Part shown: one piece after another, positions 5,441 through 43,939 of the stretch | Position numbering within the stretch: the stretch's first letter is position 1 | Layout: each line of letters starts with the position of its first letter | From: an uncultured Coriobacteriaceae bacterium | GTDB lineage: Bacteria > Actinomycetota > Coriobacteriia > Anaerosomatales > CAZWGV01 | Assembly (NCBI GenBank): GCA_964633595.1 | Contig: CAZWGV010000001.1 | Span: 33,083 to 97,082, forward strand | Reading direction: 5' to 3' | Length of the DNA stretch: 64,000 nucleotides | Translations under genes and position numbers: made by a program | Notes under the pieces: generated by a model | What the model saw: only the letters and a program-made list of their open reading frames with translations | Databases searched by the model: none | What the model was told of the DNA's origin: nothing

Positions 5441-6037
5441 TTGCGCACGCAACGATCGCGCTCTAACGTAGGGCGCAGACACCCATCTCTCAAGGCCGGA
5501 GGAATCATGTGCGCTAGCGATGAAGCGACCATGGCAGAGGGGGGCCTGTCGATCCCCTCGGCCTCCTCGTCCTGTTCGGACACGACTCATGGGCCCAAGA
5601 CCCAGCTGTCCTTCTGTCGCCTCGTCTATCACCTGGAGCGTCAGCGGCGGCTGTTCTACGATCGCCTTCTGGAGCAGCACGGCATCGGGGCGCCACACGT
5701 GCCCGTCTTGGCGCTGCTCTGGCACGACCACGGTCGCGATACCCAGGCCACCCTGGCCGAGGAGCTCGGGGTGGACCCCGCGACCATCACTCGATGCCTC
5801 ACTCGCATCGAGCAACTCGGCTACGTCACGCGAGACATCTCAGCTCGGGATACCAGGGCGTACCTGGTCAAACTCACGGAGCCCGGTCGAGACGCCGCTC
5901 GTGCAGCAGTGAGGGCGAGTGGTGCCTGGAACGAGACGCTCGTCACCGGCTGGCCCGACGCACGACGCCGCGAGGCGCTGGTGGCCATGAGCGACATGCT
6001 CGCCAATGCGCGGCGCAGTCACCTCGAGGGCGACTAG
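5441..6037 (+). CDS. MarR family transcriptional regulator
   Basis: Winged-helix region TLAEELGVDPATITRCLTRIEQLGYVTRDISARDTRAYLVKLTEPG. The true start is probably an internal Met, since the N-terminal 40 aa are atypical. Confidence 0.7.
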   Translation: MRTQRSRSNVGRRHPSLKAGGIMCASDEATMAEGGLSIPSASSSCSDTTHGPKTQLSFCRLVYHLERQRRLFYDRLLEQHGIGAPHVPVLALLWHDHGRDTQATLAEELGVDPATITRCLTRIEQLGYVTRDISARDTRAYLVKLTEPGRDAARAAVRASGAWNETLVTGWPDARRREALVAMSDMLANARRSHLEGD

Positions 6038-6278
6038 CCGCAGGTCGCTTCTCTGATGGCCGCTGGGCCGGAAGCGGCCAGCTCCCTCCATCACCCGATC
6101 GCGGCGAGCTAACCGCGGTGACCCTCGGGTGCGTCGTGAATCCCCAGGATGGGCATGATGCCTGATAGCGGGGGTGTGCGCACTATCGCTGCGTGGCACT
6201 CTCATTGCTCACTCGGTGCCGAGTCCATGCGCCAACAGCCTCAAACGTACGCCCAGGTTGCTCGGATGGGAGCTCTGT

Positions 6279-7037
6279 ATGACCGAGCCGCAGACGCCCG
6301 AAGAAGAGCGCGCCCCTGCCCGTGTGTGGGAATCGCTGCAAGACCCCCTCACTCGCAAGCTTGCCTACGCGAGCGCGGTGGTCCTCTTGTTGTGGTTGCT
6401 GAGCTTCGCTGCCGCGATGATCATTGGTGTGCTGCGGCCCGCAGTCCCCAGGACGTCCACAGAGCGTGCCTTGATGGTCTACGAGGGCCAGGTGAACTCG
6501 GGCGAGGCGGACCTCAGAGTATGGGCTGCGTACATCAGAGCGCTCATAGGCGCGAAGCAGTACTCGGATGCCGAATCGGCTATCGAGCGCGCTTTGGCGA
6601 GCGCTCCCGAGGAGAGATCGACCATCCTCGTCGAGCGTGCACGACTGAGCTTCTCGCGCGGCGACTACGCGCAGGCGGTCGAGGTATGCGACGAGACGCT
6701 AGCGGCTGTTGAGGCTGAGCTCAGGGAGAGGGAATCGGTCACTCCGGCGAGCCAGCTACCGACTGAGAGCGTATTGCCAGAAGCGTACGGGCCGGCCCTG
6801 CTGATCAAAGCCGACTCGCTGCGAGAGCTGGGGGACGCGCAGAGGGCGCTGGAGACGTACGACACATACCTCGAAAGGTGGCCGACCGCCGCTGACGTGC
6901 TCGTTCGCCGCGGCGACATCAAGGCGTTGATCGGCGACGAGTCCGGCGCCGAGGACGACTACCGCAAAGCGCTCTCCTTCGGCGACTATGAGCCGGCGAA
7001 GGAAGGGCTCGAGCGGATAGGAGCTGATCCGCGATGA
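6279..7037 (+). CDS. membrane-anchored TPR repeat protein
   Basis: ATG 6279 is preceded by GGGAG. One TM helix (AVVLLLWLLSFAAAMIIGVL) is followed by TPR-like helical repeats (AESAIERALASAP.., GDYAQAVEVCDETL.., GDAQRALETYDTYL.., AEDDYRKALSF). The stop overlaps the NHL gene start (ATGA). Confidence 0.7.
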   Translation: MTEPQTPEEERAPARVWESLQDPLTRKLAYASAVVLLLWLLSFAAAMIIGVLRPAVPRTSTERALMVYEGQVNSGEADLRVWAAYIRALIGAKQYSDAESAIERALASAPEERSTILVERARLSFSRGDYAQAVEVCDETLAAVEAELRERESVTPASQLPTESVLPEAYGPALLIKADSLRELGDAQRALETYDTYLERWPTAADVLVRRGDIKALIGDESGAEDDYRKALSFGDYEPAKEGLERIGADPR

Positions 7038-8359
7038 GCGCCCGGCAGCAGGACAGCAGGGCATCGCGCACCAGGCGCGGGCTCGCCGCGGTGCTCGCAC
7101 TCCTCCTCGTTCTCCTCGCCGCCACTTCCCTCTACCTGATAGGAGTTGTGCGTCCGCCAGGGTCGGAGGACATCGAGAGATCGGCGCGCGCCGGGAATCT
7201 CGAGTGGGTCCGCTCTATCTACGGATTCGGCTCCACTCAGGAGGAGCAGCTCAACGCCCCCAACGACGTCGCTGTCGGGCCCGAGGGCACGATCTGGGTT
7301 GCAGATCAGGCCAGGGCGCGGGTACTGGGGTTCGGGCCCGACGGATCCTACGAAACCGTGTTGCACAGAGGCCCCAGGGGCTCTTCAGAGGACGCACTGG
7401 CCTTCCCGGCCTCGCTCGCGGTGGATGAGGATGGGCTCATCTACATAGGAGACATGATGAAGGACAGGGTCGTCGTCATGTCTCGCGACAACGAGATCCT
7501 GCGGGAGTACTACGTTCCGGGTCCTCTCTCGGTGGACGTGCGAGGGGATCGCATCGTCGCCGGATCAGCGGCGGGCTTCGTCATCTTCGACAAGCAGGGA
7601 GAGGTCGTCCGGCTCGTCGGCACCAGGGGGCAGGGTGACGGGCAGTTCGACGGTGTGCGGGGTGTGGCTATCGCGCCCGACGGCGCCATCTTCGTAGTCG
7701 ATCAGTACAACAACCGCATCAGCGCGTACGACTCCGAGGGCGAGCGCCTTTGGATGAGGGAAACCGGTATCCCGGCGAACAGGTCGCGGATGGCCGAGGG
7801 TGAGACCTCCTTCGAGACTACCGCCGAGGCCGGACTGATCCTGCCCGCTCGGATCGAGGTGGACGGCTCGGGACGCCTCGTGATCGTGGACCCGTTCGAT
7901 TTCTCGATCGCCGTCCTTGATGCGGAGGATGGCAGCCTGATCGCCAAGCACGGTACCTATGGGGGCACCGACGGGCAGTTCCTGTATCCAACGGGCATCG
8001 CGTTCGACCCTGGACGCGACTGGTTCGTCGTTGCTGACACCGGGAACAGCAGGGTGCAGATAGTGCGTATCTCGGGATCGGGTGGTAGCGCGACTGCAGT
8101 GGTCAGCCGTACCCTCGCCGGGCCCTTGAGCGCGTGCGCCCTCCCTCTGTCTGGGCTGGTTCTGTTGGTGGCCTTGATCCTGCTGGTGCGAGCCATGCGA
8201 AGTCGAAGAGGCTCGCGAGGCGGTGAGGCCCCCGCTGATCGCGACTCTGCGGTCGTGGTCGGGGACTCGGGTGCGGTCACGGAACCCAGCGAGAAGGCCG
8301 ACGTAACGCAGGGTCAGGACTCCTCCGTCGACGTGTCGGCGGATGGCGGGGACGAGTAG
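7034..8359 (+). CDS. NHL-repeat six-bladed beta-propeller protein with N- and C-terminal TM helices
   Basis: Six NHL-like blades are visible (VAVGPEGTIWVADQARARVLGF, LAVDEDGLIYIGDMMKDRVVVM, GVAIAPDGAIFVVDQYNNRISAY, IEVDGSGRLVIVDPFDFSIAVL, GIAFDPGRDWFVVADTGNSRVQIV). N-terminal TM LAAVLALLLVLLAATSLYLIGVV, C-terminal TM LSGLVLLVALILLV, and an acidic tail. Confidence 0.85.
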   Translation: MSARQQDSRASRTRRGLAAVLALLLVLLAATSLYLIGVVRPPGSEDIERSARAGNLEWVRSIYGFGSTQEEQLNAPNDVAVGPEGTIWVADQARARVLGFGPDGSYETVLHRGPRGSSEDALAFPASLAVDEDGLIYIGDMMKDRVVVMSRDNEILREYYVPGPLSVDVRGDRIVAGSAAGFVIFDKQGEVVRLVGTRGQGDGQFDGVRGVAIAPDGAIFVVDQYNNRISAYDSEGERLWMRETGIPANRSRMAEGETSFETTAEAGLILPARIEVDGSGRLVIVDPFDFSIAVLDAEDGSLIAKHGTYGGTDGQFLYPTGIAFDPGRDWFVVADTGNSRVQIVRISGSGGSATAVVSRTLAGPLSACALPLSGLVLLVALILLVRAMRSRRGSRGGEAPADRDSAVVVGDSGAVTEPSEKADVTQGQDSSVDVSADGGDE

Positions 8360-8428
8360 CAGTCCCGCCGCCCCGATCGGGATCAGCGCGACCCGTCAAT
8401 CTGCGTTAAGGATGGCACACCATTCGCA

Positions 8429-8434
8429 TATACT
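8429..8434 (+). promoter_or_regulatory. candidate -10 element TATACT (would give a leader of roughly 375 nt for the hexahaem cytochrome gene)
   Basis: The hexamer with its context (TATACTCCT) recurs just upstream of ffs (56943) and dnaX (57111). No experimental support. Confidence 0.3.
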
Positions 8435-8814
8435 CCTATGCCCGACTGAATAGGCGTCAGTGGGTAGAAACACAGCGGTACGAGTTCGGATCGTTGATAT
8501 GGAGGATGCAAGGCCGAGATCGGTGAGTCCGGCTGGGCCACGGAAAACCTCCAGCTAGAGAGCGCAATCTGTACTCCGCGGTCGCAGTACGACGGTACCC
8601 GTCGTCCCGGTGCGCGGACCTGGCTAGGCACCTCCCTGCATAGCGGTCCGCCTGCAACCAAACCAGAACGCATATGCATACCGGCGCTCTCACAAGAACG
8701 GAACGTTGCGACCGCAAGAATCGCCGGTGATGCGGATCTCAGGAAGGAGGGACGGCCGTGATCGGGAGAGCGCATCAGCAGGACCCAAGGAAGACCAGAA
8801 CTGAAGGAGGCAAG

Positions 8815-9924
8815 ATGAAGAAGACCTTGTTCGTAACCATCCTGGCCACAGTATTCGTGCTCGCCTTCGCATCGAGCGCGTTTGCCGGGAAGTCGTCCGT
8901 GATGGTTCGCTCGGGTGACACGACCGTGACCGCGCCGATCGCGACGTACAACGACTGGTCCGGTACGTCCACCACGACCGCATTCGCGAACTTCCCCGGC
9001 AACGCTGGATCGACCTCACCGCACGGCGGATACGCCACTGCGACGGTGAAGTGCGCCGTTTGTCACGCGGCTCACGTGGCGGCTCCCTCGGGTGACACCC
9101 TGCTGCGTATGAAGGCCTCGGACTCGTGCGTCTACTGCCATGTAGCTACTGGTTCGAGCGTCCCTGGTGCGGTGGTGTACGGCGGTGACGCTGCCATCGC
9201 AACGGCGTCCGGCGACGATCACCACACCATCGGTAGCAACTGCAGCATCTGCCATGCGTCGGTTCACGGATCGAATGCGATCAAGAACATCCCGTCGCTA
9301 ACGGGCGTCCTTCTGAAGTCGGATTCGAACAACACCGCCGTGGATCTGCCAGCTATGGCGAACTTGCTCGACACGAGCGGGGCGCTGGCCACACGTCTGA
9401 CGACCGTGAACGACACGGCCACCCGTCGGGCAGCCATCGGCATCTGGTGCGGTACGTGCCATAACAATGCGTACTTCGTAACGAAGGCCAGCCAGAACGC
9501 GGCCTTCCAGTGGTCCTCCGGCACTGGCTGGACGTTGCGTACCGGCAGTGCTGCCAGGACGGGTCACCGGGTTGAAGCGGTGGCCAATGACGACTGGAAC
9601 GTAGGCAACAGCGTCTCCTCCAGCACTAAGGTGACCGGTCGCGTGGCCTGGGCACCTGCGACCGATTGCTGGTCGTGTCACGATGCCAAGAACGGTCTCA
9701 CTGGCGCATCTGAGGCTCCGGGCTTCCCGCACTACTCCCCCGGCGCCGGAAGGTTCCTCACCGCGGCTGGTGACGTCACTGGGCCCAAGACCAACGTTGG
9801 CGCTGTGACGTACGCTGCTGGTGGCGGAGACGGTGGACACTTGCGCTACTACACGCTGAAGGATGGCGTGTGCCTGAAGTGCCACAAGGGTTCGGCAACG
9901 ACAGGTGTGGGCTACAACTACTAG
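8815..9924 (+). CDS. secreted hexahaem c-type cytochrome
   Basis: ATG 8815 is preceded by GGAGG. Sec signal MKKTLFVTILATVFVLAFASSAFA/GK. Six CxxCH sites: CAVCH, CVYCH, CSICH, CGTCH, CWSCH, CLKCH. Eight additional His are available as distal ligands. The sequence is Gly/Thr/Ser/Ala-rich. Confidence 0.9.
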   Translation: MKKTLFVTILATVFVLAFASSAFAGKSSVMVRSGDTTVTAPIATYNDWSGTSTTTAFANFPGNAGSTSPHGGYATATVKCAVCHAAHVAAPSGDTLLRMKASDSCVYCHVATGSSVPGAVVYGGDAAIATASGDDHHTIGSNCSICHASVHGSNAIKNIPSLTGVLLKSDSNNTAVDLPAMANLLDTSGALATRLTTVNDTATRRAAIGIWCGTCHNNAYFVTKASQNAAFQWSSGTGWTLRTGSAARTGHRVEAVANDDWNVGNSVSSSTKVTGRVAWAPATDCWSCHDAKNGLTGASEAPGFPHYSPGAGRFLTAAGDVTGPKTNVGAVTYAAGGGDGGHLRYYTLKDGVCLKCHKGSATTGVGYNY

Positions 9925-9962
9925 TATCCGAGACTGACGGCCTTTGGCCGAACTGATGGCTA

Positions 9963-9990
9963 CAGGGCCGGCTCTCGAGAGCCGGCCCTG
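9963..9990 (+). terminator. perfect GC-rich palindromic hairpin downstream of the hexahaem gene
   Basis: cagggccggctctcgagagccggccctg is a 13-bp perfect inverted repeat lying 39 nt after the stop. There is no clear T-tract, which is common in high-GC genomes. Confidence 0.55.
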
Positions 9991-10144
9991 TGCGCATGCA
10001 CAGGCCCCGGCTTCGGTCTCGCCTGGTGTCGATGTACGCGGGATCGGTCGAACTGTGTCACGTGGTCAACGTGCGCACTGGCTGGGAACATATGGTATGG
10101 CGTCACCGGCCTGACCGGCGGCCTATCCTGAGGAAACCGAGACG

Positions 10145-11113
10145 GTGCAGCGACACTTCTACATCGGGCTCACCCGGTTGCTCCCCGTGGGGCTTGCCGT
10201 GGCAGCACTCGTTGCGCTTTTCGCTGTGGGCGTGACGGCAGCTACGCTGCCCGCCTGCACCTCTTGCCACGGGTCCGACCCGCTTGCCGAAGAGACCGAG
10301 GCCAGCAGCCACTCCGAGATACGGTGTGTTCGATGCCATGTCGCACCGGGGGTGGCGTCTCGCCTGACCTTCGGCTCGAGGCAGCTGTTTGGAATGACGC
10401 TCAGATTCGTGCCAGTTGGGGGGAGGGCGATCGCGAGCGTTCCGGACGCGACTTGCCTCTCATGCCACGAGCAAGTGCTCGGTGAGGTCTCGAGCTCGAA
10501 GGGCCTCAGGATCGCGCACGTCACATGCGCTGTGGGGCGTACCTGCGGTGACTGCCACTCCGGCACTGCGCATGGGTCTGCTGTCGCCTGGCTCAGGATC
10601 GCCGAGATGGAGAAGTGCCTCGAGTGTCATGGGACGGGCGAAGTATCCGCTGACTGCGGCAAGTGCCACGACCCCAGGACGCAGCGAGAACGTCTCGGCG
10701 TAGGCGCGTGGCGCGTCACACACGGGGCCGAGTGGGAGACCACTCACGGCATGGGCAACTCGGACACGTGCGCAGCGTGCCATCCCAGTAACTACTGCGC
10801 TCGCTGCCACGGCATCGATCTCCCCCATGAAGCCGGTTTCCTCGAGAGCCACGGGCAGACCGCGAAGGAGTCGCCGAGTTCGTGCGGCACGTGTCATCGC
10901 CGGAACTTCTGCGACGATTGCCATGGTCTCGAGATGCCTCACCCGGCGGAGTTCACGCCTGCTCACTCTGCTATTGCCAGCGGGACTGCGGATGTCGTCT
11001 GCGCCACCTGTCACGTCGCCAGTGACTGCAGCGGCTGCCATGTGAAGCATGTCCACCCGGGCGGAGCTATCGGAGGCGCTCCCGCCGGGACTCTCCCCGG
11101 GGGCGGTCTGTGA
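10145..11113 (+). CDS. membrane-anchored dodecahaem c-type cytochrome (NapC/NirT/NrfH-like N-terminal module)
   Basis: GTG start. N-terminal TM LLPVGLAVAALVALFAVGV. Twelve CxxCH sites in 322 aa: CTSCH, CVRCH, CLSCH, CGDCH, CLECH, CGKCH, CAACH, CARCH, CGTCH, CDDCH, CATCH, CSGCH. Confidence 0.9.
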   Translation: MQRHFYIGLTRLLPVGLAVAALVALFAVGVTAATLPACTSCHGSDPLAEETEASSHSEIRCVRCHVAPGVASRLTFGSRQLFGMTLRFVPVGGRAIASVPDATCLSCHEQVLGEVSSSKGLRIAHVTCAVGRTCGDCHSGTAHGSAVAWLRIAEMEKCLECHGTGEVSADCGKCHDPRTQRERLGVGAWRVTHGAEWETTHGMGNSDTCAACHPSNYCARCHGIDLPHEAGFLESHGQTAKESPSSCGTCHRRNFCDDCHGLEMPHPAEFTPAHSAIASGTADVVCATCHVASDCSGCHVKHVHPGGAIGGAPAGTLPGGGL

Positions 11114-12324
11114 TGATCGCTGCCCAAGTTGCGGACATCTCGCAAGTACTCCAGTCGATCCCGGAGATCATTCGTGATCCCGGGGCCGACCCGCGAGCCA
11201 CGGCCGCCCTGCTGGTGGCTGCGGTACTAGTGGCACTCATCATCGCTGTGACCGTGGCTCTGCTCCTTGTTGGCCCATCCGACCAGGAGGAAGAGGGGGC
11301 TGAGGGGGGTGAGATAAGCGAGGAAGACGAAGTGGGCGGATCTCCCGCGCCAGGGGCCGAGGGGCGGCCACGAACTCCCGCCCGGACCAGAATCGTTGGC
11401 ATTGCCGTAGTGGTGACGCTGCTCGCGGTGGTGGCCTGGGCCGCAACCGGGATCGCAACAGGCACGCGGTCGGTGTGCTTGTCGTGCCACGAGAGCAATC
11501 CGCACGCGGGTTCCGCTGCCGTAGACCCCCACGCGGACGTGGCCTGCGTTCGGTGCCACGAAGTCGGGGACGCGGTGACCCTCGCCGTGTTCACGCTCCC
11601 CGATAGAGCCGCCCACTTCCTGGCTGGTGTGAGCGAGACGGGGGCGGCCGCTGGTTACGGGCACCCGATCTCATCACTGGCATGCGAGGCCTGCCACGAG
11701 GGTTCCTTGGACAGCCCGTCGACGAGCGAGCGCACAGGGGTGCGCATGTCGCACGCGGAGCCGCTGGACGCGGGGTCGGAGTGTATCGATTGCCATGCTC
11801 TAAGGTCGGGAGTCGTGTCGTTAGCGAATGTCGGCATGACACCGTGTCTACGCTGTCACGATGGAGTAGCTGCCTCGGCGGAGTGCGAGACGTGTCACAC
11901 CAGAGACCCGTCGCTGGCCATCGCTTCAACCGAGCCAACGGCGGGCACTCTCGCCAAGGTTCAAGTGCCCCTGCCGCAGTGCGATGGATGCCACGTTCAG
12001 GAAGAGGAGGGGTGCGACGACTGCCACGGGATTAGGCTGCCGCACACGCGCGAGTTCGTTCAGTACGCGCACGCGCGGCCAGCGGTCATCGATATCTGGG
12101 ACGGGGGAGGCATCGCATGCGTCAGGTGTCACTACCCAGGTCGTCGAGACTGCAGTGAGTGCCACGACCCCTTCCCCTCTCACGGGTACTCTTGGGAGAC
12201 CGAGCACGGCATCGGAGTACGTTTCACTGCCGAGTGCGGCTGTCATAAGTTCAAGGCATACGCCGCCGAGAGGCAGTTCTGCGAGATCTGTCACGACACC
12301 GAGCCTCCAGGCACGCTCCGCTAG
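11110..12324 (+). CDS. membrane-anchored undecahaem c-type cytochrome (paralogue of the preceding gene)
   Basis: The start (GTG 11110 or ATG 11113) overlaps the preceding stop. Two TM helices flank an acidic low-complexity loop. Eleven CxxCH sites: CLSCH, CVRCH, CEACH, CIDCH, CLRCH, CETCH, CDGCH, CDDCH, CVRCH, CSECH, CEICH. Confidence 0.9.
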   Translation: MMIAAQVADISQVLQSIPEIIRDPGADPRATAALLVAAVLVALIIAVTVALLLVGPSDQEEEGAEGGEISEEDEVGGSPAPGAEGRPRTPARTRIVGIAVVVTLLAVVAWAATGIATGTRSVCLSCHESNPHAGSAAVDPHADVACVRCHEVGDAVTLAVFTLPDRAAHFLAGVSETGAAAGYGHPISSLACEACHEGSLDSPSTSERTGVRMSHAEPLDAGSECIDCHALRSGVVSLANVGMTPCLRCHDGVAASAECETCHTRDPSLAIASTEPTAGTLAKVQVPLPQCDGCHVQEEEGCDDCHGIRLPHTREFVQYAHARPAVIDIWDGGGIACVRCHYPGRRDCSECHDPFPSHGYSWETEHGIGVRFTAECGCHKFKAYAAERQFCEICHDTEPPGTLR

Positions 12325-12472
12325 GGTGCGGGTGACGCTCGGCCAGGGCGTCCGGACCTGCATCCCAAACGGCACACCGTCGCCGCCTGGCGCCCGGTCG
12401 CGGTGGTAGTGCCTCGGGTTCGTCGGGAATGGATGCCTCGGCGAACGACACGGCCGAGGGAGGTTGGACCTG

Positions 12473-13231
12473 ATGGCGGAGGTTGAGGCAAGGTTTCGCA
12501 GACTTCGTCTCTACAACGTGGTGATGGGGTTGTTCCACGCGGCGCAAGGTGTCGCGATCCTCGCGCTCGCGACAGACTTCACGCTGCCGGTGACCGCGAG
12601 CTTCCTGGAGGGCCCGCCGGGTACACCCGCCGAAACTACCGTGCTCTTCGACCTGAGCATCGCCTGGGGCGTCGCGGCGTTCGTGTTCCTTTCGGCGATA
12701 GCGCACTTCCTAATCGCCTCCCCGGGTGTGTTCGGCTGGTACGTTGCCAACTTGCGGCGGAACCGCAACTACGCGCGCTGGATCGAGTACTCGCTGAGCT
12801 CGTCGGTCATGGTGGTGCTAATAGCGCTGCTGCCGGGCATTTCGGATGTCGCCGCCCTGGCTGCCATCTTCGGCGTCAACGCCTCCATGATCCTGTTCGG
12901 GCTGCTGCAGGAGCACTACGAGGATCCGGGCAGCGGTCACTGGCTGCCCTTCTTCTTCGGCTGTATTGCAGGGCTGGTGCCGTGGATAGGGGTCGGTATC
13001 TACATGTGGAGCCCGACGACCGATGCCACGCCGCCCGAGTTCGTGATCGCGATCTTCGTGAGCATCTTCCTGTTCTTCAACAGCTTCGCGCTCAACCAGT
13101 GGCTCCAGTACAAGCGCGTGGGACCGTGGCGCGACTATCTGTTCGGCGAGAGTACCTACATCCTGCTGAGCCTTGTAGCGAAGTCCGCTCTCGCGTGGCA
13201 GGTGTTTGGCGGAACGCTGACGCCCCAGTAG
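12473..13231 (+). CDS. heliorhodopsin (7-TM retinal protein)
   Basis: Long near-identical blocks to the prototype heliorhodopsin 48C12 as I recall it: FHAAQG.AILALA.DF, WIEYSLSSSVMVVLIA (counter-ion Glu), IFGVNASMILFG, FFGCIAGLVPWIG, LFFNSFAL, YILLSLVAKSALAWQ (Schiff-base Lys). ATG 12473 sits about 9 nt after GAGGGAGG; the ORF track opens at TTG 12464. Confidence 0.9.
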   Translation: MAEVEARFRRLRLYNVVMGLFHAAQGVAILALATDFTLPVTASFLEGPPGTPAETTVLFDLSIAWGVAAFVFLSAIAHFLIASPGVFGWYVANLRRNRNYARWIEYSLSSSVMVVLIALLPGISDVAALAAIFGVNASMILFGLLQEHYEDPGSGHWLPFFFGCIAGLVPWIGVGIYMWSPTTDATPPEFVIAIFVSIFLFFNSFALNQWLQYKRVGPWRDYLFGESTYILLSLVAKSALAWQVFGGTLTPQ

Positions 13232-13261
13232 AGCCGCAGGGCAACCTGTGAGGAGGTTCTC

Positions 13262-13654
13262 ATGGCGACGAAGGGCGTGAAGAACCCCGACCTGATACCC
13301 CTCTTCAAGAGCGCCAAGAAGCTCCTGGAACCCTACGCGAAGCGTCTCTCGGTTCGGCGGGACGAGCCAGGCTACTACGACCTCTGGTCGGACAAGGAGG
13401 TAGAGATCGCGGGGCGCAAGCGCAAGGACGTCTTCTTCGCGAGCCTGATCATCCAGAAGAGCTACGTCGGCTTCTACTACATGCCGGTATACACGCACCA
13501 GGAGGCCAGGGAGTTCTTCGGCCCCGAGTTGCTCGCGCTGCTCAAGGGCAAGTCCTGCTTCTACCTGAAGGAGCTCACGCCCGAGATCCGTCGTCAGATG
13601 ACGCGCGCCTTGAAGGAGGGGTTCAACCTCTACAAAGAGCGCGGTTGGGTCTAG
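13262..13654 (+). CDS. small soluble protein, DUF1801/YdhG-like (tentative)
   Basis: 130-aa ORF starting 30 nt after the heliorhodopsin stop, with GAGGAGG as RBS. VFFASLIIQKSYVGFYYMPVY resembles the DUF1801 core. The family assignment comes from memory only. Confidence 0.45.
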   Translation: MATKGVKNPDLIPLFKSAKKLLEPYAKRLSVRRDEPGYYDLWSDKEVEIAGRKRKDVFFASLIIQKSYVGFYYMPVYTHQEAREFFGPELLALLKGKSCFYLKELTPEIRRQMTRALKEGFNLYKERGWV

Positions 13655-13666
13655 GCCCGTCCCCGC

Positions 13667-14443
13667 CTACTCAGCGTAGATGGTTCCCTCGGGCGCACCA
13701 CCGCTGCACGCGATCGTGTACTGCCCCGGCTCGAGAGCCGGGAGCTTGACGGTGCCACCATTCGTGATGTCTTGGGTGATGCCGAGGTCGGGGAAGACCA
13801 CGCCAACACGGCACTCCGTGCCCGGGCCGAAGACGATCTCAACTGGCACGCCGCTCTTCACGCGTATGAGGTTGGGCCGAAAGCCCCCTTCGTCGACTAT
13901 CTCGATGCGCTGCACCTTGCCGTCCGCCGACAGCTTGGCGGCGGTGGCATCTTCGCGAGCAGGCGCAACGTAGCCCACCTCCACCAGCTTCTTCCTGATG
14001 GGCTCGGGATTGATGGACGCCGAGTCGTACGCGACGGTGAGCTCGAGCGTTGATGTATCGAGGGAGGCCTTCCCGATTCCCACGAGCTGCGTGAGCGCCT
14101 CGAACATGTGAGTCGCCTCATGGGCGGCGTCGCCGTTCTCTATGAGTCGCGTCTGGAATGTCGTCTCCGAATCGGTCGAGACGACCGCGATGGTCTGCGT
14201 GATCACGTTGTCGGCAGTTGTCCGCTCGCCAGGCTGCGACGAGAGCAGCTGGGGGACGGTGAAGGCGGCCACAAGCAGCGCGATGGCGCCGAAGATGACG
14301 TGCTTCGGCTTGATGCGCGGAGCGGGGGGTGGCTCCTCGACGCCCGTCGGCTCCTCAGCGGCCTGCTCCTCGGTGACCTGCTCCTCGACGCCCGTCGGCT
14401 TCTCAGCGGCCTGCTCCTCGGTGATCTCGTTCTCGTCGACCAT
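13667..14443 (-). CDS. membrane-anchored protein with HMA-like (no CxxC) and C-terminal cupredoxin-like domains
   Basis: ATG 14443 with AGGAG RBS; the longer 367-aa ORF would overlap azlC. Acidic 16-aa tandem repeat, TM helix HVIFGAIALLVAAFTV, then a beta-rich C-terminus (RIEIVDEGGFRPNLIRVKSGVPVEIVF...GQYTIACSGGAPEGTIYAE) typical of cupredoxin_1-type domains. Confidence 0.6.
   Translation of the reverse strand: MVDENEITEEQAAEKPTGVEEQVTEEQAAEEPTGVEEPPPAPRIKPKHVIFGAIALLVAAFTVPQLLSSQPGERTTADNVITQTIAVVSTDSETTFQTRLIENGDAAHEATHMFEALTQLVGIGKASLDTSTLELTVAYDSASINPEPIRKKLVEVGYVAPAREDATAAKLSADGKVQRIEIVDEGGFRPNLIRVKSGVPVEIVFGPGTECRVGVVFPDLGITQDITNGGTVKLPALEPGQYTIACSGGAPEGTIYAE
14333..14428. repeat. 48-bp in-frame tandem duplication (2 copies, about 3 mismatches)
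   Basis: ctcctcgacgcccgtcggct[c/t]ctcagcggcctgctcctcggtga[c/t]ct.. occurs at 14333-14380 and 14381-14428. It encodes EEQAAE(K/E)PTGVEE.. in the cupredoxin-domain gene. Confidence 0.85.
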
Positions 14444-14657
14444 GCTCACTCCTGATCGCCTGCTATGCGTTGGGCTATCTCGACGTGCCCTCTTGGGGCA
14501 GTTGAGCATGGAGTATGGCATATCCCCGCCCGGTTGCGGGGGAAGTGCCTGTGTCACCGGACCGCTCGCACATGTGCGACCATGACCGATACCCGCCGTA
14601 TCCGGCAGACTTGGCTTGGTGGAGCGCCTCACTTGTGGAGGACCTGGGAGAGCCGTG

Positions 14658-15347
14658 ATGGGTCGAAAGCGTGCCAGCTTCCTCGCAGGGATGCGGGACA
14701 TCGCCCCGCTCGTGCCGGCTGGCATCGCCGTGGGGCTGGTTGTGGGAGCCGCAGTTGCCGAGGTAGGCATGGGCCTGCCCGAGTCGGTGGGGATGTCGGT
14801 ATTCGTTTACGGGGCGTCCGCCCAGCTCGCGGCGACCCTCCTGTGGGGCCAAGGCGCTCCGCTCCTGGTCACGGTCGGCACGGCCCTAGTGATCAACGCT
14901 CGGTTCTTCATCTACAGCGCGTCGCTTGCGCCGCTGCTCGATCCGCCGACGACACGTTCGGCTGTCGCGCAGGGCTACTTGATCCGTGATGCGGCATACG
15001 CGGCCACAGTCTCGCGTGCCCTGCGCGATCCGGAGATGGACAAGACTGCCTACTACACTGGGGCGTCACTGCTCGACTGGCTGGTCTGGCTCGTGGGAAC
15101 CTCGGCGGGCGCGCTTGGCGCCTCTTTGCTGCCGGCGTCGTGGTCGCTCGACTTCATGGTGCCCCTGGTTTTCGTTGGTCTGCTCGTGGGCGCGGTTCAC
15201 GGTCGCGCTTCTGCCGAGGCGGCGGTTGTGGCCGCTGTCGGCTCCACGATCCTGGTTCCACTCCTGCCGATGAGAGCGGGTCTTCTCGCGGCGATCGCAC
15301 TAGGCATGGTCTGGGGCTTCGTAAGGCAGGAGGAGGTCGGACGTTGA
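14658..15347 (+). CDS. azlC: AzlC family branched-chain amino acid transport protein
   Basis: Polytopic membrane ORF with the N-terminal FLAGMRDIAPLVPAGIAVGLVVG pattern typical of AzlC, followed by a coupled azlD. The start is uncertain (14616 or 14658). Confidence 0.7.
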   Translation: MGRKRASFLAGMRDIAPLVPAGIAVGLVVGAAVAEVGMGLPESVGMSVFVYGASAQLAATLLWGQGAPLLVTVGTALVINARFFIYSASLAPLLDPPTTRSAVAQGYLIRDAAYAATVSRALRDPEMDKTAYYTGASLLDWLVWLVGTSAGALGASLLPASWSLDFMVPLVFVGLLVGAVHGRASAEAAVVAAVGSTILVPLLPMRAGLLAAIALGMVWGFVRQEEVGR

Positions 15348-24884: not shown

Positions 24885-25991
24885 CTACTCGATCGGCTGG
24901 AACCGGTCGCGCAGCCTTTCCTCCACCATCGGCATCGTCGTGTACTCCATCTCATCGAGCGAGAGCCGATGCGGCTCGAACGGTCCGTGACGGCGCATGT
25001 AGTCGGCGACGTCGAGCGCCAAGGCGCGCGAGTTGTCGAAGCTGATGTCACCCAGCATGTCGTGTGGACGCCCCAGCCTGCCGTCTTCCAGCAGCTGAAG
25101 TCCGTAGGCGACAACGCGAGGCGGACCGTCGAACCGGCTCGGCGTGTCATCGTCCCACGAGACCGGCATCAGGGGACCGTGGTGACTCCCGCGCATCCAG
25201 CCGGCAACGGTGTGCGGGAAGGCGAATGGCTCGAGCGCTTCGCCCACCGCCGGCAGACCGCTCTGGCAGCGGACTATCATCACAGGGTCGTCCTTCCCAA
25301 CATAGCGTCCCGCTATCAGTGAGAGCCTCTGGGTCGACGTCGCTGCCGCGATCTCCCCGTCGCTCTTGCGAAAGACGTGCTTGATCACATAGCGCGCCGG
25401 TGCGCCTACGTAGACGAGCAGGTCGTATATCTCGTCTGGGGCGTCGAAGGAGACCTTCTTCTCCTCGAAGAGATCGTGAACCTCGAAGACGAAGCCGCCG
25501 TGCATGTTGGGATCTATGACCAGCCCGGCGGTGTTGAACGGATCGGCGAACATCTTGTACAGAGGCAGATTCCAGGCTCCTGGCTCGGTCTTGTCGGCGA
25601 GGAACACGATGATGGGTTCGCTCGGCCGGACCTCGATCTCCATCTCTGCGCAGCCCGGTCCCATTCCCCGTACATTGCCCGAGAAAGAATCGGCCAGCAG
25701 ATCCTGCCCCGCACCGTACTGACCGAGCTCTCTGGCCTTCTCGGTCATCGCTACGAACGTGTCCCAGGCGAACTCGTGGATGTCGGAGGCGTCGATCCCC
25801 CTGCGGTGCGTCATGATGAGCGCTGTGTCATCGCCGACGCGGCCGCGCAGTCCATCCAGGATCACTCCCGCGCCCTTAGCCTCCTCCAGTCGCTCCTCGG
25901 CCAGTTCACAGATCTCCGGGTGGACGCTGCAGTGGCCCACCCATCCGCCGATGTCGGCCTTGATCACGCTGAGTGTCAGCTTCTGTGGCAT
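24885..25991 (-). CDS. fbp: bifunctional fructose-1,6-bisphosphate aldolase/phosphatase (class V FBPase, archaeal type)
   Basis: MPQKLTLSVIKADIGGWVGHCSVHPE... is the hallmark N-terminus, and the 368-aa length is typical. Confidence 0.88.
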   Translation of the reverse strand: MPQKLTLSVIKADIGGWVGHCSVHPEICELAEERLEEAKGAGVILDGLRGRVGDDTALIMTHRRGIDASDIHEFAWDTFVAMTEKARELGQYGAGQDLLADSFSGNVRGMGPGCAEMEIEVRPSEPIIVFLADKTEPGAWNLPLYKMFADPFNTAGLVIDPNMHGGFVFEVHDLFEEKKVSFDAPDEIYDLLVYVGAPARYVIKHVFRKSDGEIAAATSTQRLSLIAGRYVGKDDPVMIVRCQSGLPAVGEALEPFAFPHTVAGWMRGSHHGPLMPVSWDDDTPSRFDGPPRVVAYGLQLLEDGRLGRPHDMLGDISFDNSRALALDVADYMRRHGPFEPHRLSLDEMEYTTMPMVEERLRDRFQPIE

Positions 25992-40453: not shown

Positions 40454-43400
40454 CTACTTGTGCGGCACCACGATGTTGCCGCCCCGGATACTGACGGCAT
40501 TGGCGCTCACGCTGGGAGAGCGGCCGAGCGACAGGTCGCCGATGACCGCGCTCTCCTTGTCGCGTGTCTCGATCCAGAATCTGTCTACACCGGTGCCGGG
40601 CTCATTGCGATCCTCGACGTACGCGGTGAAGCTGTGGTTGCCCTCGGGCAGCGCCATCGTCGGGGACTGGTATGTCGCCCGGCCGGTGAACGACGCCCAG
40701 CCGAAGCCGCTGTTGGTCGGTGAACTGAGCGCTAGCCCGCCCAGAGCGTTGCTCTTCACGCGGTAGATGGTGCCGTCGGGCATGTGCCGGATGAGCAGCA
40801 GGCTGCCCTGAACGTTCGTGCCGTTCTTGTTGTACTTCATCGTATAGCCGAAGTTCGTCTTGTCGCCCTTGTTCGTGCCGTTCTCGGAGTCTGGCCAGTA
40901 GAACCAGCCGCCGCCGGTAGTGAACCCGAGGCTCGGGTCGTAGACGGTGACGGCGCCCTCGGTGTAGCCGGTGTAGTATCGGCCGTTCACCGTCACCTCG
41001 ACAACGTAGGTGTTCACAGCCAGGTTCGCTGGCACTGCGATCGTGAACTTGCCTTCGGCGTCAGGGCCGGTCACCACTCCCGCGCATCCGGAACCAGGAC
41101 CGATGGGGACGAGTCTCGCGGTCACGACGGCTCGCCTGCGGTCGCCGATCTCGGCCGTGTCATCCTCGTGCAGCCACGCGATGAGCGTGAAGGCCGGGGC
41201 AGAGCCACCAGGCTTGGTCACCTGGACCGCCGCCGGGCTGTTGTCGTCGAACACGACCTTGGCCCTCTCGCACGATACGACGAGCTGGACCGCTGCGTTC
41301 ACTGATGTGGCACCGTCGCTCACGGCGCAGTTCATGTTGTAGGTACCCTCGGGCTCCATGGCGCGGCCCGCGATGCGGAAGGTCTTGCGCACACCATCAC
41401 CGGTCGTCGGGTCGCTCATCGGCGTCGATGAGGGCGAGCCATAGGCGAGGTCCGCACACAGACTGCCGGATATCGTGAGGTCGGGCGAGTCGATGTCCTC
41501 GGCAACGATGACGATCGGAGTGACCGAGTCGCTGTACTGCTTGGTCTGAGTTGACGGAGTGACCGAGACGACCACCGGCGCGTCGTTCACAGGCGTGACG
41601 TTGATGGTGAGGGTGTTGGGCGTCGGGTCGAGGTCGACACCGCCGCGCTCAGTGCCGCCGTTGTCCTGCACCTGGAAGGTGAAGGATGTGTACTGCGAGC
41701 CGTTCTCATCGGCGACGGGGCTGAAGCGGAGCTTGCCGTCCGCGATGTCGGCTGCGGAGATGAAGTCGCCTTCCGCGACCGCCGCCCCATTGCTGCGAAG
41801 TACGCCCTTGGCCGGCAGGGTCGCGATCTTGACTGCTGCTAGCACGTTGTGCGCGATGGAGTCGTTGGGGTCGGTGAAGCCGAAGTTGGCCGCTGCGAAG
41901 GTGTATGTGGTGTCCTCGAGCGTAGTGACGGTCTTGTCGGTGCCGGCCGGGGCGTCGTTGACGGAACGCACGGTGATGGTGACTGTGGCGATCGTCGAAG
42001 TGTCGTCGTCGAGAGCTTCGTACTTGAAGCTGTCGGTCCCGTGGAAGTTCGGGCTGGGCGTGTAGGTAAAGGAGCCGTCTGCGCCGACCGTGACAGTACC
42101 GTGCACAGGATTCGAGACCTTCGCCGCACTGAGCGGGAGGTCGGCGGGCACGTCGCTGTCGTTGGCTAGTACGCCTGGGGCGTCGACGCTCAGGATGCCG
42201 TCTTCGTTGACCGAGTAGCTGTCGTCGGTAGCGTCTGGAGCCACGTTGGCGACCGTGACAGCGAGCGTGTCGCGGCTCGTCTCATCGTCGTCCGTGACGG
42301 TCACGGTCACCACATAGCTGCCGTCCTGCTCGTATACGTTGGACAAGGAGAACGTCTTGCCGGTGAGCGTGAGCGGGACCTCTCCCGCGCCCTCGCCGTA
42401 GTCCACGGTGGCCGTCCAGCTGTCGTCGCCGGGATCGGTGAAGCTGCCGGACTGGGAGAACGTGTCGCCCTCGTCTATGGCGGCGTCGGCTCCGGCGTCT
42501 ACCGAAGGAGCCACGTTGGCGACCGTGACAGCGAACGCAGCGCTCCCGGAGCGACCTGTTGAATCCTCAACTGTAACGCTGACCGGCCGAACCGCGGGCC
42601 CGTCAGCGTAGGTATGTACGCGAGTTCCAAGCGAACCAGCCGAACCTGTTGTGAAGACATCATTCGGCGTCCCGTCGCCCCAGGCTACCGTCACGGTCCA
42701 CGGACCCCCGTCCGGATCGCTGAACGAACCCAGCGAGAAGGACTTGGCGACGCCCTCTGTCGCGATCTGCGAGGCGGGTGCAGTGACCTTTGGTGTCGTG
42801 GGTGCCGCGACGGCCACCGTCACGGTGGCTGCCTTGCTCGGCTTGTAGTACGCATTGCCGACGAACCTCGTCACCAGCTTGTAGGTACCGCCGTCCGAGG
42901 GGAGTGTCATCGCGGGCGAGCCCGTTGTCTTGCCGGTTGCGTCGACGTTCGCCAACACGGGGCCGGCTTCGCGAACCGTCTCAGCCGAGTTGAACAGCTC
43001 GAACGTCGCCAGGTTCGCACCGGCGAGGTTCGGATCGGGGGAGATGGTGCCATTCAAACCACCCGGCGGCGCCGGACTCCCACCGTCAAGATCCGCCACA
43101 GTAGCGGCGAGAGCCAGTGGTGTTCCCGCGATACCGGACGTCGCGCCACCGTAGGTGACACGAGTATCTTCCTTGTCGACGTGCGAGAAGGCTGTCTGTG
43201 GTGTGTTCCGAGCTCCGACATGCGACACAACGAAGGTGTATCTCGTCGCGTCGCTCGTCGGATCCGAGGGCAGGCAGCGCAAGGGAACGTCGACCGTGAA
43301 CGTTGCGGCCTTGTTTTGCCCGCCGGTGGACCACGACGGCCCCGTGAGGGTGGTGACCACCGAGTCCTCGTAGTCGAGGTAGTCGCCATCGCGATTCCCG

Positions 43401-43939
43401 TCAAGGCTAACCGTGACTGGCTTGCTACCCGGTTCGTCATCCTTGGTGGTGCTCTCAAGCTTTCCTGTCACCCTCGCGAAGTCCGAGTAGTCCGGTCCGG
43501 GAGAGGGCGGGGATACGGCGGTGGGACCGATCTCAATGAAGTACGGATCGAACTCGGTCACGAACACCGCGCCCGAGGCCTGTCCGGTGGCGATCACGAG
43601 GTAGATGCCGGCGGGCGCAGTGTCATACATGAAGAATGTGTCGAGGAACTCCCCGGCTTCGTTCGCGAAGACGGTGTTGTACTGCTCTAGGCTGCCCTCG
43701 GGCGCGTAGACCTCCACGACTACGGGCTCGCTCGGCCACATCTCGTCGCCGAAGATGTGCACCGTATCACCCCAGTCATAGAAGAAGCGCGGGAACTCCT
43801 TGTAGTACTCCCGCGTGTTCTGGTCGTCTCCGGTCCATACGGCGGCGTGCGCCGCCAGGACGCCAAACGAGAGCACGATCGCCAGCGTGACGACTGCGAG
43901 AGCCGCTAGACGACCAAAGTGCCGTCTCCGCATGCGCAT
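40454..43939 (-). CDS. large secreted multi-domain surface protein (Ig/PKD/cadherin-like repeats)
   Basis: 1161-aa ORF with signal MRMRRRHFGRLAALAVVTLAIVLSFGVLAAHA/AV. Repeated VANVAP / VNDAP linker motifs, a PKD-like WGDGT segment, and a C-terminal GGGWF...NFGYTMKY...DRNEPGTGVDRFWI module. No LPXTG. Confidence 0.8.
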   Translation of the reverse strand: MRMRRRHFGRLAALAVVTLAIVLSFGVLAAHAAVWTGDDQNTREYYKEFPRFFYDWGDTVHIFGDEMWPSEPVVVEVYAPEGSLEQYNTVFANEAGEFLDTFFMYDTAPAGIYLVIATGQASGAVFVTEFDPYFIEIGPTAVSPPSPGPDYSDFARVTGKLESTTKDDEPGSKPVTVSLDGNRDGDYLDYEDSVVTTLTGPSWSTGGQNKAATFTVDVPLRCLPSDPTSDATRYTFVVSHVGARNTPQTAFSHVDKEDTRVTYGGATSGIAGTPLALAATVADLDGGSPAPPGGLNGTISPDPNLAGANLATFELFNSAETVREAGPVLANVDATGKTTGSPAMTLPSDGGTYKLVTRFVGNAYYKPSKAATVTVAVAAPTTPKVTAPASQIATEGVAKSFSLGSFSDPDGGPWTVTVAWGDGTPNDVFTTGSAGSLGTRVHTYADGPAVRPVSVTVEDSTGRSGSAAFAVTVANVAPSVDAGADAAIDEGDTFSQSGSFTDPGDDSWTATVDYGEGAGEVPLTLTGKTFSLSNVYEQDGSYVVTVTVTDDDETSRDTLAVTVANVAPDATDDSYSVNEDGILSVDAPGVLANDSDVPADLPLSAAKVSNPVHGTVTVGADGSFTYTPSPNFHGTDSFKYEALDDDTSTIATVTITVRSVNDAPAGTDKTVTTLEDTTYTFAAANFGFTDPNDSIAHNVLAAVKIATLPAKGVLRSNGAAVAEGDFISAADIADGKLRFSPVADENGSQYTSFTFQVQDNGGTERGGVDLDPTPNTLTINVTPVNDAPVVVSVTPSTQTKQYSDSVTPIVIVAEDIDSPDLTISGSLCADLAYGSPSSTPMSDPTTGDGVRKTFRIAGRAMEPEGTYNMNCAVSDGATSVNAAVQLVVSCERAKVVFDDNSPAAVQVTKPGGSAPAFTLIAWLHEDDTAEIGDRRRAVVTARLVPIGPGSGCAGVVTGPDAEGKFTIAVPANLAVNTYVVEVTVNGRYYTGYTEGAVTVYDPSLGFTTGGGWFYWPDSENGTNKGDKTNFGYTMKYNKNGTNVQGSLLLIRHMPDGTIYRVKSNALGGLALSSPTNSGFGWASFTGRATYQSPTMALPEGNHSFTAYVEDRNEPGTGVDRFWIETRDKESAVIGDLSLGRSPSVSANAVSIRGGNIVVPHK

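Follow-up and report, generated by a model that had tools for sequence, protein, structure and literature searches.

The subject of this analysis is the gene for a secreted hexahaem c-type cytochrome (hereafter the hexahaem) in a 64,000-nucleotide stretch of DNA, called the window throughout, from an uncultured Coriobacteriaceae bacterium (contig CAZWGV010000001.1, positions 33,083 to 97,082). The gene is the third of five that lie on the same strand in the order TPR-repeat protein, NHL propeller, hexahaem, 12-haem cytochrome and 11-haem cytochrome. The three cytochrome genes, all adjacent, are the only open reading frames (ORFs) in the 64-kb window with at least two CxxCH motifs. The genes and elements of this cassette are as follows.

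6174-7037, + strand: TPR-repeat protein, gene 1 of the cassette (Pfam TPR_16, E 9e-13)
7034-8359, + strand: NHL beta-propeller protein with N- and C-terminal transmembrane helices, gene 2 (Pfam NHL, E 1.8e-20)
8360-8814, + strand: intergenic region of 455 nt with a conserved upstream Shine-Dalgarno sequence (core 8744-8750) and an in-frame GTG at 8758
8815-9924, + strand: secreted hexahaem c-type cytochrome, 369-aa precursor and 345 aa when mature, six CxxCH
9962-9991, + strand: perfect 30-nt palindrome, a GC-rich stem-loop with a 13-bp stem and a 4-nt loop, 38 nt past the hexahaem stop
10145-11113, + strand: ImdcA-like NapC/NirT-type cytochrome with 12 CxxCH and an N-terminal transmembrane helix (Pfam Cytochrom_NNT)
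11110-12324, + strand: second membrane-anchored NapC/NirT-like cytochrome with 11 CxxCH, its start overlapping the 12-haem stop

The hexahaem ORF runs on the + strand from an ATG at 8815, preceded by GGAGG at 8806-8810, to a TAG at 9922-9924. Its 369-aa product begins with a Sec signal peptide, MKKTLFVTILATVFVLAFASSAFA, encoded by 8815-8886 and followed by GK; the cleavage end reads AFASSAFA, and its AxA site is kept across the family alignment. In the mature protein the CxxCH motifs lie at positions 56, 81, 119, 188, 261 and 329, which amounts to one haem per 58 aa, and there are eight non-motif histidines (H70, H87, H136, H137, H151, H251, H306 and H342 in precursor numbering). Gly, Thr, Ser and Ala together make up 47.8% of the mature chain, and with 20 D/E and 23 K/R its net charge is low. 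A sequence scan of the hexahaem found no LPXTG and no C-terminal or other hydrophobic run outside the signal peptide, and on these two grounds a sortase-anchored surface protein was rejected. The recomputed values agree exactly with the ORF, the 345-aa mature length and the six motif positions given in an initial annotation, and composition and hydrophobicity bear out its description of a protein rich in Gly, Thr, Ser and Ala, low in charge and free of both a membrane anchor and LPXTG. Its eight extra histidines, held to suffice for bis-His ligation of every haem, were likewise found, six of them being conserved in relatives. The sparse spacing of haems that it had singled out is not distinctive, since CwcA of Thermincola and OmcS of Geobacter, discussed below, have about 55 and 68 aa per haem. 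Two ORFs of similar length, 13667-14770 and 24885-25991, were considered as hexahaem paralogues and dismissed because they are not cytochromes.

A word index gave 70 homologues of the hexahaem. When 1.84 billion cluster representatives were searched with a profile, 1,576 matched at E <= 1e-3, of which 247 reached E <= 1e-30. Most family members are 280-450 aa long with exactly six CxxCH, and the named ones are all 'hypothetical protein' entries from metagenome-assembled genomes (MAGs) of Coriobacteriia/Actinomycetes. A genome scan located 77 loci, nearly all in Coriobacteriia/Actinomycetota MAGs, with a few in 'Eubacteriales' MAGs and one in the biocathode organism EMTCatB1. Pfam and NCBIfam contain no model for the family and returned only generic multihaem domain matches. 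In an alignment of 140 sequences the six CxxCH are invariant, as are H70, H87, H151 and H306, and H137 and H251 are conserved in at least 90%. Six conserved distal histidines for six haems imply that every haem would be bis-His ligated, with no catalytic site.

This ligation pattern bears directly on the possibility, in our view barely credible, that the hexahaem is a catalytic multihaem enzyme of the nitrite, hydroxylamine, sulfite or tetrathionate reductase type. Such an enzyme would agree with weak profile matches to an HAO-like protein (6h5l, E 3.7e-6) and to NrfA-type proteins in a search of the PDB, and with the nitrite respiration encoded by EMTCatB1 (PMC7943316). However, no CxxCK or atypical motif is present, and six distal histidines for six haems leave no coordination site open. 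No curated enzyme family was matched in Pfam or NCBIfam, and the conserved context consists of wire-type genes (TPR, NHL and NapC/NirT) rather than enzyme maturation genes. The catalytic reading was rejected on the grounds of ligation, family matches and gene context.

The C-terminus is also strongly conserved. The family tail extends 11-13 residues past the last CxxCH; 198 of 207 sequences end in F, Y or W, and 184 fit G[VILAT]G..[FYW]-COOH. The window protein ends in GVGYNY (family motif GVGxx[FY]), encoded within 9880-9921. In multidomain relatives the hexahaem module is nearly always the extreme C-terminal domain. Judged from these sequences, the conserved C-terminus must be free, and its motif might be recognised by the co-encoded TPR protein or used in subunit contacts. 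Family architecture also suggests that extracellular proteins could use the module at their C-terminus for docking or anchoring. The fused relatives include P0111, in which a subtilase (S8 with prodomain and MAM) precedes the module, and P0081, P0085, P0120 and P0202, in which the module stands behind Ig-like Big_13 domains with 3-15 extra haems. An extracellular location of the hexahaem is consistent with these fusions to a secreted subtilase and to Ig-like domains. Tandem duplication was also seen: on a hydrocarbon-metagenome contig (L003, 10001-12559) two hexahaem paralogues, P0011 and P0018, each about 40% identical to the window protein, lie in tandem between the NHL and ImdcA-like genes.

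The cassette itself recurs in differing chromosomal surroundings. Where the flanking DNA was long enough to tell, the hexahaem gene is immediately preceded by the NHL gene in 59 of 69 loci and has a TPR gene upstream on the same strand in 55 of 69, while ImdcA-like and 11-haem genes occur within about 4 kb downstream in 43 of 63. In the window the NHL gene start overlaps the TPR stop by 4 nt. The TPR protein, as read from its sequence, has an N-terminal cytoplasmic stretch, one transmembrane helix and TPRs predicted to lie outside; its start is uncertain, with an internal ATG at 6279. The 12-haem ImdcA-like protein is presumed to be a menaquinol dehydrogenase.

A similar arrangement surrounds the cell-wall cytochrome CwcA of Thermincola (Tfer_0075 in T. 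ferriacetica, TherJR_1122 in T. potens). The T. ferriacetica contig was reached through the ImdcA sequence in the supplement of PMC7911101, and the identity of CwcA was confirmed by its name in the collection, 'cell-wall cytochrome A', and by published primers that match the gene ends. Gene order on that contig is ImdcA, a 407-aa NapC/NirT cytochrome, a 17-haem protein, a 214-aa TPR protein, a 321-aa NHL protein and the 353-aa hexahaem CwcA. The family profile aligned with CwcA end to end (HHalign 98.9%, score 124, residues 1-360 against 1-343, 281-286 aligned columns), and in hmmsearch the same profile scored CwcA at 71 bits, while none of six other multihaem proteins exceeded 19 bits. In pairwise comparison the two proteins match significantly over the first 49 residues only (39% identity, E 5e-7). 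The neighbours correspond as well: by BLASTP the window 12-haem protein matches Thermincola ImdcA over its full length (E 1e-15), the 11-haem protein matches Tfer_0071 (E 2e-11) and the NHL protein matches Tfer_0074 (9e-10). The 214-aa Thermincola TPR gene, in the same position as that of the window, has a weak CcmH/CycH-TPR match (38.8 bits). Because of the end-to-end profile alignment and the homologous NHL and second NapC/NirT neighbours, the window hexahaem is, by position and sequence, the actinobacterial counterpart of CwcA. CwcA has been obtained only in insoluble form and was modelled as an OmcS-like polymer (PMC7911101). The full-length homology to CwcA and the shared TPR-NHL-hexahaem and ImdcA-like context fit the proposal, made in the initial annotation, of a wall-embedded electron conduit. 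We infer that the hexahaem lies in the wall of a monoderm cell, in line with its relatives in Coriobacteriia/Actinomycetota MAGs and with the Gram-positive-type surface protein genes of the window.

The relation to OmcS of Geobacter sulfurreducens (GSU2504; PDB 6EF8/6NEF, the query being identical to 6ef8_A) was assessed with a narrow hexahaem-family profile (A1), a broader one of 140 sequences (A3) and an OmcS-family hidden Markov model (HMM; A2). Against 177,635 PDB sequences, A3 placed OmcS first (E 1.8e-10, 43.8 bits), ahead of OcwA (35.8 bits) and MtrA (34.2 bits); with A1, OmcS was missing at E <= 10. Profile-profile comparison of the hexahaem and OmcS families gave HHalign scores of 98-104 at a probability of about 98% and, with greedy realignment, set the six haem motifs of both in the same order. 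The N-terminal half of the hexahaem aligns to the OmcS N-terminus and the C-terminal half to its C-terminus, and the alignment also pairs CxxCHxxH at haem 1, GxxLL…SxCxxCH, the His before haem 3, WCxxCH and the terminal CxKCH. As a control, OmcS alignments in which the CxxCH columns were kept and the rest shuffled scored 36.8 +/- 7.4 (maximum 56.6, n=40), and a real ImdcA-family profile of 40 sequences scored 53-57 against the hexahaem family and 35 against OmcS; the hexahaem-OmcS signal thus stands at roughly double the multihaem background. This separation is seen in the profile-profile comparison only: HHalign of A3 against the single OmcS sequence gave 36.8, at control level. CwcA ties the hexahaem family to OmcS, because the OmcS profile scores 104.5 against it.

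Five of the six distal-His positions of OmcS and CwcA correspond in the hexahaem. In OmcS the second His of the haem-1 CxxCHxxH (H16) reportedly ligates haem 5 of the next subunit, according to the 2019 structure papers. The OmcS resemblance noted at first sight probably reflects remote homology, detected as the top PDB match and as a collinear profile alignment above controls. The local motifs on which that impression had rested fared unevenly: HHalign placed KCAVCHAAH on ECEGCHTMH, IWCGTCH on EWCANCH and VCLKCHK on LCNKCHAK, but SPHGG did not fall on FHSGG of OmcS, its His aligning instead with that of YYHGD in CwcA.

A further link to OmcS comes from the neighbouring propeller. The gene directly upstream of omcS encodes a 315-aa divergent NHL propeller, GSU2505 (Pfam NHL 20.7 bits), which matches the window NHL protein in BLASTP (E 1e-7). 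Proteins of about 315-330 aa, for which Pfam gives no confident match, precede omcS and three OmcS homologues in MAGs of Anaeromyxobacteraceae and other Deltaproteobacteria (L085 8809-9756, L087 4697-5695, L088 3980-5928 and L089 4490-5455). Aligned with the cassette NHL proteins, these upstream propellers gave an HHalign probability of 96.7% over 193 columns, a value to be read with the caution that propeller repeats match one another easily. Some OmcS paralogues are followed by a YncE-like propeller. From the propellers upstream of omcS and its homologues it follows, as far as such comparisons go, that an NHL-hexahaem pair is common to Geobacter, Thermincola and Coriobacteriia. GSU2505 has a reported connection to electrode respiration, and OmcS has been proposed to depend on it for assembly or expression (PMC9070056).

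MtrA, another match of the PDB search, raises the question of an insulated wire, in which a single hexahaem copy would run in or along a protein sheath, with the NHL propeller in place of a beta-barrel, and span a defined barrier. We consider this quite improbable. The first three haems of the hexahaem, in its N-terminal stretch, do match the last three of MtrA (6r2q_A), at E 6.5e-6 when the single sequence is searched and at 1e-7 when the profile is used, and the protein scores 27.6 bits with DmsE. In addition, the cluster that the OPB41 paper reports for cultivated OPB41 strains, presumably the same cassette, was described as two quinol-oxidising multihaems plus an 'MtrA homolog' (PMC9686372). 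But the MtrA match covers only some 80 residues and three haems, the DmsE score lies far below the cutoff of that family (TIGR03508, 192.2 bits), and the hexahaem has six haems, not ten. There is no porin gene among its neighbours in the window, and the hosts are monoderm relatives. The full-length match is CwcA, and the top solved-structure sequence with the broader profile is OmcS rather than MtrA. Membership of the MtrA/DmsE decahaem family was rejected on haem number, the DmsE score and the lack of a neighbouring porin. The PDB sequence copy labels 6r2q_A 'Cystathionine beta-synthase', whereas the Foldseek table gives 'Structure of the Mtr complex'; the aligned sequence is multihaem (MtrA), so the name in the copy is wrong.

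The flanks of the hexahaem gene set it apart within the cassette. Upstream, a second in-frame start, the GTG at 8758, has its own Shine-Dalgarno sequence (AAGGAGG at 8744-8750) and lies 57 nt ahead of the MKK start. The upstream Shine-Dalgarno sequence and in-frame start are kept in seven aligned loci (alignment A6, the window plus L002, L003, L006, L007, L008 and L010), five of which read ATGAA(A/T)GAGAT, encoding 'MKEM…' or 'MNEM…'. Because of this conservation the true start may be 8758, which would add a 19-residue N-terminal extension to the precursor; the upstream site might act as a tandem start or lengthen the n-region of the signal peptide. In the annotations of many family members a 'MKEM…GGS' extension of 14-20 residues stands ahead of the signal peptide.

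Downstream, the 91-nt hairpin region around 9962-9991 has a folding energy of -45.2 kcal/mol (z = -4.06 relative to shuffles), and the hairpin is not followed by a T-run or U-tract. A strong GC-rich stem-loop (best 50-nt window with dG < -30 kcal/mol within 120 nt of the stop) occurs 3' of the hexahaem in 73% of 66 loci, compared with 0-7% after the TPR, NHL, ImdcA-like and 11-haem genes. Its presence is conserved and its letters are not, the hairpin sequence itself varying among loci. The element is probably a terminator or an mRNA-stabilising structure. Scans for sigma-70 and terminator consensus sequences gave nothing relevant, no sigma-70 consensus being found in 8360-8814, and an Rfam scan of window positions 5800-13500 gave no match.

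Expression of a homologue is consistent with this specificity. In Coriobacteriaceae bacterium EMTCatB1 (locus L034, scaffold 1, 140096-157142) the cassette was located by synteny as leuC, a hypothetical gene, a TPR gene named 'nrfG', a hypothetical gene (NHL), three multihaem genes, leuD, leuB and ilvE, and gene 1d0125 was taken as the hexahaem homologue by the same synteny. On a methane-producing biocathode the TPR gene reached 99.8 transcripts per million (TPM), the NHL gene 85.9, 1d0125 10,917, and the first and second downstream cytochromes 269.6 and 152.2 (PMC7943316 supplement). The hexahaem homologue thus exceeds its cassette neighbours 40-130-fold, with a jump of about 127-fold from NHL to hexahaem. 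Its mean TPM was 10,917 in closed circuit, with a six-fold difference between the two replicates, against 3,942 and 4,287 (open circuit, BrES) (PMC7943316). Because of the jump between the NHL and hexahaem homologues, the hexahaem is presumed to have its own promoter, which would lie within 8360-8814. Transcript excess together with a hairpin is the pattern expected of a major structural subunit with its own promoter and 3' terminator or stabiliser. The guess in the initial annotation that the hairpin marks a highly expressed subunit accords with the restriction of the hairpin to the hexahaem 3' end and with a homologue at about 11,000 TPM next to genes at 86-270.

From the sequence features, homology, synteny, hairpin conservation and homologue expression ratio given above, we infer a scheme that covers where the hexahaem resides, which way electrons run, whether it polymerises and what the NHL and TPR proteins do. 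With a probability of roughly 60%, the hexahaem is a CwcA-like, bis-His cytochrome of the remote OmcS superfamily that, as a stacked wire, serves as the extracytoplasmic component of a five-gene module for extracellular electron transfer. The 12- and 11-haem NapC/NirT-type cytochromes would oxidise menaquinol on the outer side of the membrane, and the hexahaem would receive electrons from them and pass these on across the wall to acceptors that are insoluble or external. Inward flow is also conceivable, as in uptake on the EMTCatB1 cathode. Many hexahaem copies stacked head to tail would make an OmcS-like haem wire across the wall; the membrane-anchored NHL propeller could support it as base or scaffold, and the TPR protein could serve as chaperone or help in assembly. 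That the protein is an electron conduit we hold to be likely; that it polymerises is a tentative proposal, at a little under even odds. A single six-haem chain measures about 5 nm, going by the OmcS subunit rise. The Gram-positive wall is 20-80 nm thick (PMC7911101). A stacked, multi-copy wire is considered the most likely arrangement because of this disparity, the transcript excess, and the homology to the OmcS polymer and to insoluble CwcA.

Several observations weigh against this reading. In the PDB profile search OmcS stands only about 8 bits above OcwA. The OmcS-family HMM scores the window protein at -1.6 bits and the best of the 140 family members at 15 bits, none passing default filters, and BLASTP of the hexahaem against OmcS is not significant, with scattered motif matches at a best E of 0.01. 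HHalign probabilities are inflated for multihaem families, as ImdcA, of unrelated architecture, reaches 92%, and for this reason we take the OmcS relationship as probable remote homology outside the OmcS family proper, not as membership. The haem-5 CHxxH His of OmcS and CwcA is absent from the hexahaem, which has FPH (H306) 17 residues later instead, and an N-terminal extension of about 40 residues (in some relatives a large N-terminal fusion), absent in OmcS, might not fit OmcS-type packing. AlphaFold2 monomer models reached pLDDT 66.6 with 52 sequences and pLDDT 83.5 with pTM 0.81 with 140, and Foldseek found no significant match in the PDB for either, OmcS included, the best being MtrA at E = 2; Foldseek is known to be weak on coil-rich multihaem folds. 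No experiment is known to have demonstrated that CwcA polymerises. High expression, finally, would suit an abundant monomer as well.

Such a monomer, or a carrier or terminal reductase docked on the NHL protein, would accept electrons from the 12- and 11-haem proteins, diffuse in the wall or sit on the propeller, and reduce soluble or colloidal acceptors and shuttles. In favour of this, no inter-subunit interface is in evidence and Foldseek gave no filament match; six conserved distal histidines can satisfy six haems within one chain; and the N-terminal extension and fusions are easier to accommodate in a monomer. The window contains no other secreted cytochrome of the module, so the hexahaem, be it monomer or polymer, would lie outermost among its redox proteins. 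We nevertheless think a monomeric carrier rather unlikely, though deserving of serious weight, since a chain of about 5 nm is too short for a wall of 20-80 nm (PMC7911101), and a 40- to 130-fold transcript excess over the redox partners with a conserved hairpin suggests stoichiometric excess, as in structural subunits. Moreover, with OmcS a polymer and CwcA only insoluble, both characterised homologues point away from a simple soluble monomer.

The stacked wire preferred here can be carried further, into a proposal that we regard as speculative and on present evidence unlikely: TPR, NHL and hexahaem would form a dedicated, ancient wire-assembly system common to OmcS (as the NHL-hexahaem pair), CwcA and the Coriobacteriia family. 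The doubly membrane-anchored NHL propeller would nucleate or anchor a hexahaem homopolymer growing through the peptidoglycan, subunits would be chaperoned or loaded by the TPR protein through its binding of the free GVGxx[F/Y] peptide, and the subtilase or Ig-multihaem fusions that end in a hexahaem module would dock on the wire as tip or accessory subunits.

Other genes of the window lie outside the cassette. A heliorhodopsin gene (12464-13231, + strand, Pfam PF18761, E 1.5e-102) begins about 140 nt past the 11-haem gene; it is not part of the cassette in L002 and L003, and its exact protein sequence is absent from a collection of 15 billion proteins. On the opposite strand, 1.3 kb past the cassette, 13667-14770 encodes a protein with a cupredoxin-like domain. 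Two large surface-protein genes (40454-43939 and 44303-46408, both - strand) carry PKD/cadherin-like and SdrD_B/SpaA domains and fit a Gram-positive host.

Knowledge of CwcA dates from 2012, of OmcS filaments from 2019 and of the OmcS-based model of CwcA from 2021. A cluster of this type seems to have been recorded in the OPB41 paper, where the third cytochrome is called an 'MtrA homolog' (PMC9686372), and a review of February 2026 lists no Gram-positive cytochrome filament. As far as the literature searched shows, the proposed assignment of a large Coriobacteriia family to the CwcA/OmcS lineage appears to be new, as do the conserved TPR-NHL-hexahaem triad with its putative NHL link to omcS, the gene-specific hairpin, the apparently relocated distal His and the conserved, presumably free C-terminus. 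For the passage of electrons across a thick wall the Thermincola model is still the only source of knowledge, and its key component, CwcA, has resisted purification; the family offers hundreds of diverse Coriobacteriia targets, some from cultured Anaerosomatales, with one homologue already among the most transcribed genes on a working biocathode (EMTCatB1). The NHL propeller and the TPR protein are concrete partner candidates, the former apparently shared with OmcS, whose assembly pathway is to our knowledge incompletely understood. OPB41-type Coriobacteriia occur widely underground, so the module may be relevant to iron cycling and to electromethanogenesis. If the assembly system proposed above were real, it would be the first Gram-positive cytochrome nanowire system with identified assembly factors.

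Compared with known systems, the hexahaem shares with MtrA/DmsE a local three-haem unit (CxxCHxxH...LLK...CxxCH...CxxCHxxVHGSN) and all-bis-His haems, but those proteins have ten haems, sit inside a porin and belong to diderm bacteria, and only about 80 residues match. With OmcS it shares six haems, a Sec signal without a lipobox, and collinear haem motifs and, at five of six positions, distal histidines, including CxxCHxxH at haem 1. In contrast to the hexahaem, OmcS is about 60 residues longer, its mature N-terminus begins at the first His, its hosts are diderm, no TPR gene is adjacent and the C-terminal GVGxx[F/Y] motif is absent; filament formation has been shown for OmcS only. From CwcA the window family differs in the extension of about 40 residues between the signal peptide and the first His, in lacking the CHRAH His at haem 5 and having an invariant FPH (H306) where CwcA has FPR, and in its C-terminal GVGxx[F/Y], which CwcA does not have. 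The two NapC/NirT genes lie downstream of the hexahaem in the window but upstream in Thermincola, and the 17-haem, 14-haem and 2,108-residue multihaem genes near CwcA have no counterpart in the window. Both CwcA and the hexahaem, however, are secreted, anchorless proteins of about 330-345 mature residues from monoderm hosts, with all six CxxCH aligned collinearly. YYHGD/SPHGG, CHxxH at haem 1, CHxxH or CHxxxH at haem 3 and the His of YMHRM/TGHRV are aligned between them, and H137 corresponds by order only. The TPR-NHL-hexahaem order is common to both, in a cluster that also holds an ImdcA-type and a second NapC/NirT-type cytochrome.

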